Part shown: piece after piece, positions 1,279 through 6,448 of the stretch
How the letters are laid out: each line of letters begins with the position of its first letter
Numbering within the stretch: the first letter of the stretch is position 1
Source of the DNA: a virus
Taxonomy: Duplodnaviria; Heunggongvirae; Uroviricota; Caudoviricetes
Virus record (IMG/VR): IMGVR_UViG_2526164602_000017
Span: 1-7,631 of that record
Strand: one strand, 5' to 3'
Length of the DNA stretch: 7,631 nt
The notes under the pieces: model-generated
Told to the model about the DNA's origin: nothing
What the model saw: the letters and a program-made list of their open reading frames with translations, nothing else
Databases searched by the model: none
Position numbers and translations under genes: made by a program

Positions 1279-3216
1279 ATGTCGATTAAACATTATGATG
1301 TTGTCAGGGCGGCGTCGCCGTCAGATCTTGCGGAAAAGCTGACACACAAACTGAAAGAGGGCTGGCAGCCGTTTGGTAGTCCTGTGGCCATAACCCCTTA
1401 TACCCTGATGCAGGCGATTGCCGCGGAGGGGGATGTGACCACGCCAGTGGTTGTGCCCGGCACGGGGGATGGTGGCTATCCGGGAGTGGTCACCACGGAG
1501 CCAGATTATTACTACGTTATTCCACTGGCCGGGCAGTCGAACGGCATGGCTTACGGTGAGGGGCTTCCTCTGCCGCAGACATATGACCGTCCTGACCCGC
1601 GTATAAAGCAACTGGCTCGTCGCAGCACAGTGACGCCGGATGGCGCTCCCTGTAAATATAACGACATTATTCCGGCAGACCACTGTCTGCATGATGTACA
1701 GGACATGAGCCGTCTTAACCATCCGAAAGCTGACCTGTCGAAAGGTCAGTACGGAACCGTGGGGCAGGGGCTGCATATTGCCAAAAAGCTGCTGCCGTTT
1801 ATACCGGCGAATGCGGGTATTCTTCTGGTTCCGTGCTGCCGTGGTGGTTCAGCTTTCACCACCGGGGCAGATGGAACATACAGTGACGTGACCGGTGCCT
1901 CAGAGAGTTCTACCCGCTGGGGTGTGGGCAGGCCGCTGTATAAGGATCTCATCGGTCGTACAAAAGCCGCGCTGGCAAAGAACCCGAAAAATGTGCTGCT
2001 TGCCGTGGTGTGGATGCAGGGGGAATTTGACTTTGACGGAACGCCAGCAAATCACACAGCCCGTTTTACAGAAGTAGTGGAACAATATCGTACGGACCTT
2101 GCAGATATGGTGGGACAGTGCGCTGGTGGTTCTGCTGACGGTGTTCCCTGGATATGTGGAGACACAACTTATTTCTGGAAGCAGAAGAGCGAATCCACTT
2201 ACCAGACGGTGTACGGCAGTTACAAAAACAAAACGGAAAAGAATATTCACTTTGTGCCGTTCATGACCGATGAGAACGGAGCAAATGTCCCGACGAACAA
2301 ACCGGAAGAAGACCCGGATATTCCGGCATCAGGATATTACGGTGCGGCCTCCCGGACGTCGGCAAACTGGACGTCAGCAGACCGTGCGAGCCATTTCAGC
2401 TCATGGGCACGCAGGGGGATTATTTCTGACCGTCTTGCCTCAGCGATTCTTCTCCATGCAGGACGGACGGCTGAACTGGTGGGTGGGGAACAGGTTGTGA
2501 TGCCGCCGGATGAGAAGCCGTCACCGGACACACCATCAACACCGTCAACGGACGGGAAATCAGTGACAACGCTGCTTTATTACCGTGCAACAGAGTCAGG
2601 TGGTTTACTGAATCCGCAGGGATGGGGAGCTGAAGGAGGGCGTGCATTGGTAGTTGATGATGCAGGTGCTGCAGGAGGTAAGGCGCTGAGGTGGACCAAA
2701 CAGACAGGAAGTTCCTCGTGGTTTATGCAGCATGATGCCGGTAATGGCGCAGACCTGCTGGAGAAGGGCGGGCTTATCAGTTGTCGTTTTAAAGTTGATG
2801 GCACACTGACAGCTAATCAGTACGCACTGGCGCTGTACTGGCCGGTTTCTTCACTGCCTCAGGGCGTCACACTGGAAGGTAATGCCGGTCATAACCTGCT
2901 GGCGTCGTTTTACGTACAGAGCGATGCCACAGACCTTAATGTGATGTACCACAAGGGAAATGCTGGTCAGAACACGAAGCTGGGGTCATTCGGCGCATTT
3001 GATAACGAATGGCATACGCTGGGCTTCCGTTTTGCCGGTAACAACAGTATTGAGGTGACGCCGGTCATTGATGGTAAGGACGGGACGCCGTTCATGCTGT
3101 CACAGTCACCGGTCGGCACGTTTACGGCAGACAAATTGCGCGTGACCGATATCACTAGCGGTGCGACATATCCGGTGCTGATTGAAAGTATAACAGTGGA
3201 AGTGAATAACCCGTAA
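1279..3216 (+). CDS. nanS-p: prophage sialate (9-O-acetyl-Neu5Ac) O-acetylesterase, NanS-p-like (SASA/SGNH hydrolase with N-terminal DUF1737-like region)
   Basis: 645-aa ORF with SD GGGAG 8 nt upstream of ATG 1279. GQSN catalytic-serine motif (PLAGQSNGMAYGEG) as in SASA/SGNH esterases. N-terminus MSIKHYDVVRAASPSDLAEKL resembles the conserved N-terminal domain of Stx-phage NanS-p proteins. Size and position (after the tRNA/stx slot, before S) match those proteins. Confidence 0.8.
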   Translation: MSIKHYDVVRAASPSDLAEKLTHKLKEGWQPFGSPVAITPYTLMQAIAAEGDVTTPVVVPGTGDGGYPGVVTTEPDYYYVIPLAGQSNGMAYGEGLPLPQTYDRPDPRIKQLARRSTVTPDGAPCKYNDIIPADHCLHDVQDMSRLNHPKADLSKGQYGTVGQGLHIAKKLLPFIPANAGILLVPCCRGGSAFTTGADGTYSDVTGASESSTRWGVGRPLYKDLIGRTKAALAKNPKNVLLAVVWMQGEFDFDGTPANHTARFTEVVEQYRTDLADMVGQCAGGSADGVPWICGDTTYFWKQKSESTYQTVYGSYKNKTEKNIHFVPFMTDENGANVPTNKPEEDPDIPASGYYGAASRTSANWTSADRASHFSSWARRGIISDRLASAILLHAGRTAELVGGEQVVMPPDEKPSPDTPSTPSTDGKSVTTLLYYRATESGGLLNPQGWGAEGGRALVVDDAGAAGGKALRWTKQTGSSSWFMQHDAGNGADLLEKGGLISCRFKVDGTLTANQYALALYWPVSSLPQGVTLEGNAGHNLLASFYVQSDATDLNVMYHKGNAGQNTKLGSFGAFDNEWHTLGFRFAGNNSIEVTPVIDGKDGTPFMLSQSPVGTFTADKLRVTDITSGATYPVLIESITVEVNNP

Positions 3217-3853: not shown

Positions 3854-3928
3854 CCATACGCAGGGGCTGTCGGTGTGAGCTGATGCCCCTCCTGTTGTTG
3901 TGAGCTTCCGGATTGCGGGAGACGGGGT

Positions 3929-4144
3929 ATGTACCAGATGGAAAAAATCACAACGGGTGTGTCATACACCACGTCAGCGGTGGGGACGGGATACTGGTTA
4001 CTGCAGCTGCTGGACAAAGTCTCTCCGTCCCAGTGGGTGGCGATAGGTGTGCTGGGGAGTCTGCTGTTTGGCCTGCTGACGTATCTTACTAACCTGTATT
4101 TCAAAATCAGAGAGGACCGTCGTAAGGCGGCGCGGGGAGAGTAG
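3929..4144 (+). CDS. S: class II holin, phage-21 S-type pinholin
   Basis: 71 aa, near-identical in layout and many residues to phage 21 S as I recall it (..[55 protein letters not shown]). Two TM segments. Dual-start motif MYQM (ATG 3929 and ATG 3938). SD GGGAGACGGGG upstream. Confidence 0.85.
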
Positions 4145-4147
4145 ACG

Positions 4148-4939
4148 ATGAATAAACAATACGAACTGGTTGTTAAAGGGATAAATATTTACCCGGATAA
4201 GATTACTGTTACTGTGGCGCTGGAAACTGGTGGGTATACGTCACTGTTGTTGCCAAATGTGGTGATTGATCTTGATCGTGTTGAAGGTGCCCCGCTGGAG
4301 TTTTACGAAGCTGAGGCGAAAAAGAAGGCGAAGCAGTTTTTCATGGATATTGCTGCCGGGTTATGTGAAGGGAACGAACCGTTGCCGGAAAAGCGCCTCT
4401 GTTCAGAAGAGCGGTATACCATACAAATTAACAATGCATATAACACGATACAGTCAGAAAAAGATGATATCGAATCACGCATTGAAAAACTGGAGAACAG
4501 CGTCGTTGAACTGAATAAAAAACTGTCGGTGCAGATCCCTTCCGAAGGTGAAAAAAAACGCCGTGATGAGCAGTTCGCGGCGTTTTACGATTATTGCCGG
4601 AAAGTGATGAGCAGAAATCTCGCAGAGTGTTTCCGTATTCAAAAAAACAGAGAGCGCTCTGCAAATAGTGAGATTCTGGATAATTTTTTAAAGGGGACGC
4701 ATCTCGCCAGTGATTGTTTCATTGCTCATTCTTTTGGTGGCTTTCATGAGGCCATCAAACATGATGTTGAGAGAAGTCCAGGTATCCTCTGTTCCATTCC
4801 CGTAAGCATCGAAATAGACACAAATACGATAACCGGTGAACTCGTTACCGCCGGAGTCGGTATATTCCGTCATGAGGGGAACGATGCCAAAGGTTCCTTT
4901 ACAAAAATCGGGCCGTTCTTTCTGAAGGTAGAGCGATAG
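4148..4939 (+). CDS. hypothetical protein, unknown function (cargo ORF A)
   Basis: 263-codon ORF starting 3 nt after the S stop, with GGGAGA 7 nt upstream of ATG 4148. AT-rich; by hand count 6 ATA, 3 AGA, 2 CGG and 1 CGA codons. Predicted coiled-coil-like stretch IESRIEKLENSVVELNKKL. The last 84 codons overlap the convergent ORF on the other strand. No family recognised. Confidence 0.5.
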   Translation: MNKQYELVVKGINIYPDKITVTVALETGGYTSLLLPNVVIDLDRVEGAPLEFYEAEAKKKAKQFFMDIAAGLCEGNEPLPEKRLCSEERYTIQINNAYNTIQSEKDDIESRIEKLENSVVELNKKLSVQIPSEGEKKRRDEQFAAFYDYCRKVMSRNLAECFRIQKNRERSANSEILDNFLKGTHLASDCFIAHSFGGFHEAIKHDVERSPGILCSIPVSIEIDTNTITGELVTAGVGIFRHEGNDAKGSFTKIGPFFLKVER

Positions 4940-5320
4940 TTTGTTAAGTACCCATCCGACAGCTCGCTCATTTTGGTTTATTTTCGTATCGCGAAACAAA
5001 AATTCGAAGCGGCCAGATGACGCATGGGTGCAACCAAATACCGGGGCGTATTCATCAACCTTTGGTGTTCCTGAAAACATGCAGTCCGTGCTCTCGAATG
5101 CAGATGAATTGCTGTTGATCCACTTAACAAAAGAAAAAAAGGTCTGAATCGCTTGTCTGTCTGAATATTCAACAAAATCCTCAAGGTGTGTCTCGATCAG
5201 TTCCGGGTGTTTACGAAAGTCATAATATTGACCGGGACGATATTTATGAGTGGTTGTTTTATCCCATGGTTGTGCTCTGCGTCCCTGTAAACGGAGGTCT
5301 GCCGCTGGATAGATAAGCAT
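4688..5320 (-). CDS. hypothetical protein, unknown function (cargo ORF B)
   Basis: Minus-strand ORF with a canonical SD: AGGAG (complement of 5328-5332), a 7-nt spacer, then ATG (complement of 5318-5320). This gives 210 aa beginning MLIYPAADLRLQ. The track's upstream extension to 5389 has no start signal. AT-rich. No family recognised. Confidence 0.55.
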   Translation of the reverse strand: MLIYPAADLRLQGRRAQPWDKTTTHKYRPGQYYDFRKHPELIETHLEDFVEYSDRQAIQTFFSFVKWINSNSSAFESTDCMFSGTPKVDEYAPVFGCTHASSGRFEFLFRDTKINQNERAVGWVLNKLSLYLQKERPDFCKGTFGIVPLMTEYTDSGGNEFTGYRICVYFDAYGNGTEDTWTSLNIMFDGLMKATKRMSNETITGEMRPL

Positions 5321-5375
5321 AAGTAATCTCCTGGTGGAATGTAATCCACGATCATCCGGGGAAATTAAGAACCCG

Positions 5376-5396
5376 CCAGTGCCCACCACTGGTGGG
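5376..5396. promoter_or_regulatory. compound inverted repeat upstream of cargo ORF B (candidate operator or RNA hairpin)
   Basis: Two overlapping perfect palindromes: CCAGTG (5376-5381) / CACTGG (5387-5392), and CCCACC (5382-5387) / GGTGGG (5391-5396) with spacer ACT. Lies in the 130-bp gap between the start of minus-strand ORF B (5320) and the start of R (5451). Confidence 0.3.
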
Positions 5397-5450
5397 GTGA
5401 AGGCTTAACATATCCAGGGATTCGGAACCGATAAATCCTGATAAATATCC

Positions 5451-5984
5451 ATGAACACCAAAATCAAATACGGCCTGTCGGCTGCCGTTCTGGCGCTGAT
5501 TGCCGCAGGGGCGCCTGCGCCTGATATTCTCGACCAGTTTCTGGATGAAAAAGAAGGTAACCACACCACGGCATACCGTGATGGTGCGGGTATCTGGACC
5601 ATTTGTCGTGGTGCCACCAGGGTGGATGGCAAACCTGTCGTTCCGGGCATGAAGTTGTCGAAGGGAAAATGCGACCGGGTTAACGCCATTGAGCGTGATA
5701 AGGCGCTGGCGTGGGTGGAGAAAAACATCAGAGTGCCGCTGACCGAACCCCAGAAAGCGGGGATCGCGTCATTCTGTCCGTACAACATTGGTCCCGGTAA
5801 GTGTTTCCCGTCGACGTTTTATAAACGAATTAATGCAGGTGATCGCAGGGGAGCGTGTGAGGCGATTCGCTGGTGGATTAAGGACGGTGGGCGTGATTGC
5901 CGCACACGTTCAAATAACTGCTACGGACAGGTTATTCGTCGTGACCAGGAAAGCGCATTAGCTTGTTGGGGGATAGATCAGTGA
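5451..5984 (+). CDS. R: SAR endolysin (T4-lysozyme-like muramidase, GH24 family)
   Basis: 177 aa. N-terminal weakly hydrophobic Gly/Ala-rich segment ([18 protein letters not shown]) typical of a signal-anchor-release domain. Catalytic E-x8-D-x5-T spacing in [16 protein letters not shown], as in T4 lysozyme E11/D20/T26. Paired with a pinholin as in phage 21. Confidence 0.85.
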
Positions 5985-6448
5985 GAAGAGTAACCGCGAT
6001 TATTTACGCTCTGGTTATCTGCATCATCGTCTGTCTGTTATGGGCTGTTAATCATTACCGCGATAACGCCATAACCTACAAAGAGCAGCGCGATAAAAAA
6101 GTCAGTGAGCTGGAGCTGGCAAATGCAACCATTACTGATATGCAGCAGCGCCAGCGTGATGTTGCTGCACTTGATGCCAGATACTCGAGGGAATTAGCTG
6201 ATGCGAGAGCTGAAAATGAAACTCTGCGTGCTGATGTTGCCGCTGGTCGTAAGCGCCTGCGGATCAACGCCACCTGCCACGGTACCGTGCGTGAAGCCAC
6301 CGGCACCTCCGGCGTGGATAATGCAACCGGCCCCCGACTGGCAGACACCGCTGAACGGGATTATTTCATCCTCAGAGAACGGTTGATGATGATGCAGAAG
6401 CAGCTGGAAGGGGCGCAGGAATATATCCGCACTCAGTGTATTAACTAG
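5981..6448 (+). CDS. Rz: i-spanin Rz
   Basis: Very similar to lambda Rz as I recall it (..[33 protein letters not shown]... [23 protein letters not shown]...). N-terminal TM helix plus periplasmic coiled coil. I place the start at GTG 5981, which overlaps the endolysin stop (GTGA); the track's TTG 5963 is the alternative. Confidence 0.85.
6201..6386 (+). CDS. Rz1: o-spanin Rz1 (outer-membrane lipoprotein), embedded in the +1 frame of Rz
   Basis: 61-aa ORF wholly inside Rz. Lipobox LVVSAC. Pro-rich mature part ([27 protein letters not shown]) closely matches lambda Rz1 as I recall it. Confidence 0.8.

Follow-up and report, generated by a model that had tools for sequence, protein, structure and literature searches.

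The stretch of DNA analysed here (7,631 nucleotides, referred to throughout as the window) is the late/lysis region of a lambdoid, Stx-type E. coli prophage with a holin gene, a ydfR-family gene, a lysozyme gene and Rz/Rz1, and between positions 3900 and 5500 it is 98.8–99.9% identical to prophages in the listed E. coli genomes, including O145:H28, O157:H7 and O103:H2. On its plus strand there are two tRNA-Arg genes (33–109, anticodon TCG; 123–199, anticodon TCT), a TerB-like/TerB-domain ORF (340–801), an intergenic match to the sRNA STnc100 (972–1138; Rfam 94 bits, E = 5.6e-20) and, downstream of this match, a gene for a 645-aa esterase (1279–3216) with DUF1737, SASA sialate O-acetylesterase and DUF6645 domains. 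The gene at the corresponding position of a related phage record is annotated as a 9-O-acetyl-N-acetylneuraminic acid deacetylase. DUF1378 and DUF826 ORFs lie between the esterase and the holin of the late lysis operon, which is of class II (S21-type; 3929–4144, plus strand; PF04971, E = 1e-32; 'class II holin family protein' in PGAP) and is immediately followed by the ydfR-family gene, termed ORF A. The next late gene encodes the phage lysozyme (R; 5451–5984, plus strand; PF00959, E = 1.1e-23; 'lysozyme' in PGAP), with Rz (5963–6448, plus strand) and, embedded in another frame of the same strand, Rz1 (6201–6386) beyond it, and a DUF1441 protein encoded downstream of Rz/Rz1. Rz/Rz1 are themselves the classic known embedded pair, and are located ~1 kb from the overlap examined here.

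In the mechanical ORF list ORF A occupies 4148–4939 on the plus strand (263 aa) and ends at a TAG at 4937–4939, while a minus-strand ORF, ORF B, is listed at 4688–5389 and ends at a TAA that is the complement of 4688–4690. The two are convergent and share 4688–4939, and the 252-bp, 84-codon overlap claimed in the sequence-only reading of this DNA is borne out by the list. The same is true of the exact codon register between the strands: positions 4148 and 4688 are both 2 mod 3, codons of both ORFs occupy positions 2, 0, 1 mod 3, and the reverse complement of ORF B in frame 0 translates exactly to the ORF A tail 'LKGTHLASDCFIAHS...FLKVER*'. Both frames are open across 4688–4939, and the rule given for this register, that only sense TTA, CTA and TCA codons create antisense stops, is correct.

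We placed the start of ORF B at the ATG at 5320 and not at the GTG at 5389, because its homologues all begin with MLIYP or MLVYP and a Shine-Dalgarno motif, AGGAG, can be read in the sequence 7 nt before this ATG (5328–5332, minus strand). ORF B (4688–5320, minus strand) is thus 210 aa long with 127 codons outside the overlap, in agreement with the unique region proposed for it earlier. Full-length homologues of 210–219 aa are found in Salmonella (64–65% identity) and in a metagenome (53% identity), and three of four share the C-terminal end residue, the fourth (P0004) being 9 aa longer; to the 210-aa homologues ORF B aligns without gaps. An exhaustive HMMER scan gave 227 cluster representatives at E≤1e-3 (129 with the stricter E≤1e-10), nearly all of 200–226 aa and aligned end to end, and a profile search returned 299 proteins, including members from Nitrospira, the Pseudomonas syringae group and Polyangiaceae. 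All 299 are 'hypothetical' and none carries a Pfam domain. Likewise, ORF B itself had no match in Pfam, PHROG, PADLOC or NCBIfam, nor among the defence-system models searched. Its family, for which Pfam has no entry, is uncharacterised.

An AlphaFold2 model of ORF B built with the family alignment had a pLDDT of 95 and a pTM of 0.91. The part encoded within the overlap comprises the end of a helix (residues 118–135), two strands (142–154 and 160–174) and a helix (177–203), and its pLDDT is 94–98 in each 10-residue block as far as residue 200, falling to 89 over residues 201–210. Neither the PDB nor BFVD contains a close structural neighbour of the model. When each of three ungapped homologues was compared with ORF B over its 83 overlap codons, differences at codon positions 1, 2 and 3 numbered 25/14/44, 22/12/31 and 26/15/38, and this 3>1>2 pattern is a coding signature in the frame of ORF B. 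Together with pN/pS values of 0.25–0.49 (see below), the homologues and the predicted fold indicate that ORF B is a genuine gene across the entire overlap, and that its sequence within 4688–4939 is under selection as coding sequence. Neither the inspected RefSeq complete E. coli genomes nor the inspected Stx phage record annotates it. In some genomes (NZ_CP028122, locus L002, and the similar hits H24 and H25) an A8/T8 homopolymer within ORF B (window position 5134; A8 run ~5129–5141) has a 1-bp deletion that frameshifts ORF B near codon 62, and there PGAP calls a 95-aa plus-strand 'hypothetical protein' over the N-terminal half of ORF B. The deletion could represent decay, slippage or sequencing error.

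The surroundings of ORF B suggest that it is likely an independent transcription unit. Approximately 100 nt upstream of the gene are conserved between the E. coli and Salmonella loci, as are the first ~15 nt after its stop codon, although no sigma-70 promoter for ORF B was found in a consensus scan. The conserved upstream region includes a hairpin, CCAGTG-N5-CACTGG (5374–5394, minus strand), which contains the spurious GTG at 5389 and forms 8 pairs, two of them with compensatory changes in an RNAalifold analysis of four loci. It recurs with a 5- or 6-nt loop ~55–75 nt before the ORF B start, with the copies in L003, L006 and L007 at about 3930–3955 of those loci, and may serve either as an operator palindrome or as an RNA element of the 5'-UTR; an Rfam search of 4100–5500, the hairpin included, returned nothing. 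Downstream, a consensus scan matched a terminator-like hairpin with a T7 run (GCAGAGCGCTCTCTGT+TTTTTTG; 4640–4662, minus strand), positioned 26 nt past the ORF B stop, exactly at the left breakpoint of the cassette described below; its fold is weak (MFE -7.7 kcal/mol, z = -0.16).

Elsewhere, homologues of ORF B are found as lone genes on the opposite strand at varied prophage positions. In L007 the gene is divergent from a holin; in L006 it has a Q-region gene on one side and a methyltransferase/holin block on the other; in L009 it is flanked by tail genes, as it is in a Pseudomonas prophage (L016–L018), where these are genes L and M; and in a Salmonella prophage remnant (L003) it adjoins sodC. 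Stand-alone chromosomal homologues are also present in Nitrospira and in another phylum. None of the ORF B-homologue loci compared has a ydfR gene or a long convergent overlap, and convergent neighbours there either end 53–580 nt away or overlap by 4 nt.

By its Pfam score (PF07041; residues 1–96, profile positions 1–90 of 93, E = 7.5e-34, 116.3 bits against a gathering cutoff of 25) ORF A is a member of the YdfR/DUF1327 family, with coverage of 1–168 for PHROG 2091 and of 1–171 of 296 for PHROG 1085. Pfam, PHROG, blastn and the family alignment together delimit a family-homologous part of codons 1–164 (4148–4641, plus strand). In the alignment, agreement extends up to '...CRKVMSRNLAECF' ('...NLAECF', residue 162) or its short-form counterpart and is followed by divergence into three unrelated endings, namely a short one giving proteins of 169–183 aa, a long one giving proteins of 287–296 aa with a conserved domain of ~120 aa, and the ORF A tail, which continues past this region with 'RIQKNRERSANSEILDNFLKGTHL...'. 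Hence neither family-type C-terminus, whether the short '...FEESKSLQ' or the long ~120-aa domain, is present in ORF A. A literature search on DUF1327 or ydfR found nothing relevant.

The ORF A tail (residues 165–263 plus TAG; 4642–4939, plus strand) comprises 99 codons. Neither Pfam nor PHROG matches it, it shows no resemblance to the C-terminal domain of the long form (BLASTP, E = 2.2), and its homology is limited to near-identical copies of the cassette. All proteins sharing the tail come from such copies joined to other ydfR variants, one of 263 aa (P0007) and others of 305 aa (P0008–P0013). A 161-aa variant (P0024; L015 1013–1498, NZ_CP031343), named a hypothetical protein by PGAP, has lost most of the DUF1327 region, and with it the Pfam match, and keeps the read-through tail. 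A MAFFT match between 'FLKVER' in the tail and 'YLKVRI' in long YdfR was rejected as an end-alignment artefact, given the BLASTP E-value of 2.2 and the fact that the motif mirrors 'LYLQ.ER' of ORF B. AlphaFold2 gave pLDDT values of 74–93 for ORF A residues 1–73 and 28–46 for residues 153–263, the low values in the tail being expected with the shallow alignment there and weak evidence on their own. PGAP labels ORF A a pseudogene ('DUF1327 domain-containing protein, incomplete, missing C-terminus'), and in phage GenBank records the 263-aa ORF A is the sole annotation at this place.

Comparison with prophages that carry the long form of ydfR and lack ORF B (L010 and L011) located the junction. 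By blastn these are 96.5% identical to window positions 3901–4641. Homology is lost after 4641 and returns at 5442, which is 9 bp ahead of the lysozyme ATG, and the flanks have 95–96.5% identity. It follows from these two breakpoints that an 800-bp cassette (4642–5441) has replaced 396 bp, namely the long C-terminal domain and stop codon of a long ydfR-family gene. The ORF B cassette is therefore present in one and absent from the other of otherwise collinear, near-identical sets of phage genes, as is characteristic of a moron. It is carried at 99% identity or more by 132 of 5426 complete E. coli genomes, with 99.8–100% identity among those listed, and eight records of Stx1a/Stx2a-converting phages have it at 100% identity; with listed copies this alike, polymorphism within E. 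coli has no power to reveal selection. The window has no stx genes in the interval from its tRNAs to the esterase, though the cassette occurs in both Stx1a and Stx2a phages, and GC content (0.43–0.47 in both) cannot tell cassette from ydfR.

In prophages with the short YdfR form (L012 and L013), blastn homology to the window breaks at 4597 and 5375, and the family alignment shows the ydfR slot to be highly mosaic. These two prophages carry a different, 86-aa minus-strand ORF between ydfR and the lysozyme gene (L012 486–746; L013 628–888), which overlaps the ydfR 3' end by 53 bp. Opposite-strand inserts seem to land repeatedly in the ydfR–lysozyme slot.

We next consider why the antisense frame of ORF B is open. 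Its 83 overlap codons include 7 Leu and 4 Ser codons, of which the sole CTA is the first Leu; the last 82 sense codons contain no TTA, CTA or TCA, and ORF A ends at the first antisense-stop codon of ORF B, this CTA being read as the TAG at 4937–4939. When synonymous codons were redrawn, the probability of encountering no stop was 0.08 with the codon usage of ORF B itself, 0.11 when usage was taken from the other genes of the window and ~0.16 for textbook E. coli fractions, and the in-register antisense strands of other window genes have open runs of 175, 142, 106 and 84 codons. Furthermore, the same frame is open for 83 codons in both L006 (S. diarizonae) and L009 (metagenomic), for 88 in L007 and for 96 in L016 (Pseudomonas), and closes early in L003, L019 and L020. 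Because the frame is open in homologues that have no ORF A, and to an extent within the range of chance, its openness is a property of the ORF B sequence and selection is not needed to account for it. The length of the open stretch and its recurrence in ORF B homologues where no second gene exists are both as expected of a shadow ORF.

Selection was assessed with Nei-Gojobori proportions between the window and L003, L006 and L009. In the frame of ORF B, pN/pS was 0.32, 0.33 and 0.49 within the overlap and 0.25, 0.31 and 0.40 in the rest of the gene, and in the in-register antisense frame used by ORF A it was 1.02, 0.81 and 0.78 within the overlap and 1.13, 0.79 and 0.90 in the rest, all from ORF B homologues at loci with no ORF A, so that a recent, lineage-specific use of the tail would not show in the comparison. 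Values in the overlap resemble those in the rest of ORF B in both frames, with no sign of constraint on the ORF A frame in either part. Thus, at these loci the overlap shows purifying selection in the ORF B frame only and no drop in synonymous rate relative to the rest of ORF B, and of the two products ORF B is conserved through the overlap, with conservation of ORF A stopping at residue 164.

Taken together, we regard it as very probable that the overlap is a prophage mosaic junction followed by read-through into a chance-open, in-register shadow frame, and not a case of dual coding; mosaic junctions and in-register shadow frames are both well-known phenomena. On this explanation, the opposite-strand 800-bp ORF B cassette (4642–5441) would have replaced the 3' end of a long ydfR-family gene and taken away its stop codon, and because of this loss the truncated ORF A would read on through 16 codons of ORF B 3' flank and then the antisense strand of ORF B. 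The junction would by chance have put ORF A into the codon-aligned antisense frame, and the tail would be a by-product of the ORF B sequence. Our results support only in part the idea that the locus holds two real genes whose long overlap is functional. ORF B is real throughout the overlap and its family spans it, and for ORF A the same can be said up to codon 164, where homology stops and the read-through tail begins. Short YdfR homologues stop at 169–183 aa and long ones have an unrelated C-terminal domain, so that neither reaches the overlap; homologues that end before it, named beforehand as the finding that would tell against two overlapping genes, are in essence what we observe for ORF A and not for ORF B. 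The earlier warning that one C-terminal extension could be non-functional fits the ORF A tail, which lacks any homologue of its own.

How the locus might behave can be outlined from its arrangement. In a lysogen the late operon would be silent, and ORF B would be expressed leftward from its own promoter. Upon induction, Q-antiterminated polymerase from the late promoter would cross 4642–5441, antisense to ORF B, on its way to the lysozyme, Rz and packaging genes, and ribosomes on ORF A, directly after the holin, would meet no stop until 4937 and add 99 unselected residues; the tail is thus probably translated as a C-terminal appendage. Convergent transcription and the complementary late RNA would lower ORF B expression by collision or antisense pairing, making transcriptional interference between the late operon and ORF B plausible, with late transcription probably silencing ORF B.

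Among the alternatives, the one that fares best is that ORF A is a wholly dead pseudogene and the locus holds no functional overlap, which differs from our preferred explanation only in the fate of the N-terminal 164 residues. It would fit the PGAP label of an incomplete pseudogene, the internal-deletion variant P0024 (L015) that lacks a DUF1327 match and the mosaic nature of the ydfR slot. We nevertheless think it the less probable account, as the DUF1327 domain remains intact, as does the helical region to residue 164, with 96.5% DNA identity to full-length genes, and as little may have been lost, some family members being only 169–183 aa long. Since short members are of this size, the first 164 residues of ORF A may still be functional.

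True dual coding, in which both ORF B and the 84-codon stretch of ORF A tail opposite it are functional polypeptides, is in our view highly improbable. Both frames are indeed open, ORF A has a good Shine-Dalgarno motif and adjoins the holin in the late operon, so that its tail is probably translated in lytic growth, and antisense overlapping genes have been reported in EHEC (PMC9927249). The same tail is also found in ORF A variants of 263, 305 and 161 aa, which is expected from common cassette DNA, yet compatible with retention. Against this, the homologues of the tail are limited to near-identical cassette copies, it begins exactly at the recombination breakpoint, pN/pS in its frame is about 1, as in the non-overlapping part of ORF B, homologues that lack ORF A have the frame just as open, and the pLDDT of the tail is about 30. 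Similarly improbable is a more elaborate version in which the translated tail has acquired a function, making this a very young dual-coding stretch, and ORF B is a lysogeny factor switched off by late transcription.

A sequencing or assembly indel that falsely extends one ORF, which had been offered as the alternative to a genuine overlap, is hardly credible. Homopolymer runs are present, such as the A8 run at ~5129–5141 where a few genomes have a 1-bp deletion, but the cassette is near-identical (99.8–100%) in the listed complete genomes and eight phage records from independent projects, ORF B is gap-free against its 210-aa homologues, and the ORF A extension starts at a homology breakpoint, identifying a recombination junction at 4641/4642 in place of an error. 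The reverse arrangement, with ORF A real throughout and ORF B its shadow, can be dismissed with similar confidence, because although phage records annotate ORF A and the inspected RefSeq genomes lack an ORF B annotation, ORF B belongs to a large, same-length, cross-phylum family with a pLDDT-95 predicted fold and a 3>1>2 substitution pattern, and occurs at loci without any ydfR gene.

If dual coding were true after all, 4688–4939 would be a young antisense dual-coding stretch in the lysis cassette of an Stx-type phage; on the explanation favoured here, as a mosaic junction with read-through, the overlap as such is of minor importance. What the locus illustrates is that mosaic recombination and a permissive, codon-aligned antisense frame can create a long convergent 'overlapping gene' without selection, and it is useful as a negative control for overlapping-gene screens of EHEC prophages. 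It also has value for annotation, given that the inspected RefSeq and phage records leave the conserved ORF B without an annotation, while a protein or a pseudogene is annotated for the chimeric ORF A. With ~300 members and recurrence as an opposite-strand insert in Escherichia, Salmonella and Pseudomonas prophages, the ORF B family is a reasonable candidate for functional study.

We finally compared the locus with known systems. Opposite-strand morons are established in lambdoid prophages, an example being lambda bor, which adjoins Rz. ORF B resembles these in being a single gene among conserved late genes, oriented against the late operon and missing from close relatives, and in belonging to a family that is placed differently in different phages. 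It differs in that its protein is unrelated to named moron products, and in that its insertion truncated a neighbour rather than landing between genes. With respect to YdfR/DUF1327 proteins of the holin–lysozyme slot, residues 1–164 of ORF A are typical of the family and encoded in the same slot as in L010, L011 and L013, whereas its C-terminus has been replaced in a family that otherwise ends at 169–183 aa or with the ~120-aa domain.

Published work traces long ORFs in frame -1 back to codon usage in the annotated gene (PMC3454372). The ORF A tail resembles such ORFs in its exact register, in drawing its stops from TTA, CTA and TCA only, and in that the composition of the real gene explains its openness. 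Unlike those ORFs this frame is not free-standing, and would be entered by ribosomes of an upstream gene that lacks a stop codon of its own. The antisense overlapping genes of EHEC, namely ano, laoB and three genes of EDL933, are supported by RNA-seq, Ribo-seq and phenotypes (PMC5960689, PMC5810103, PMC9927249). The present locus is similar in its organism group and in having a long antisense ORF over a conserved gene, and it differs in that the overlap is known here from sequence, comparison of which favours the ORF A tail being a by-product.
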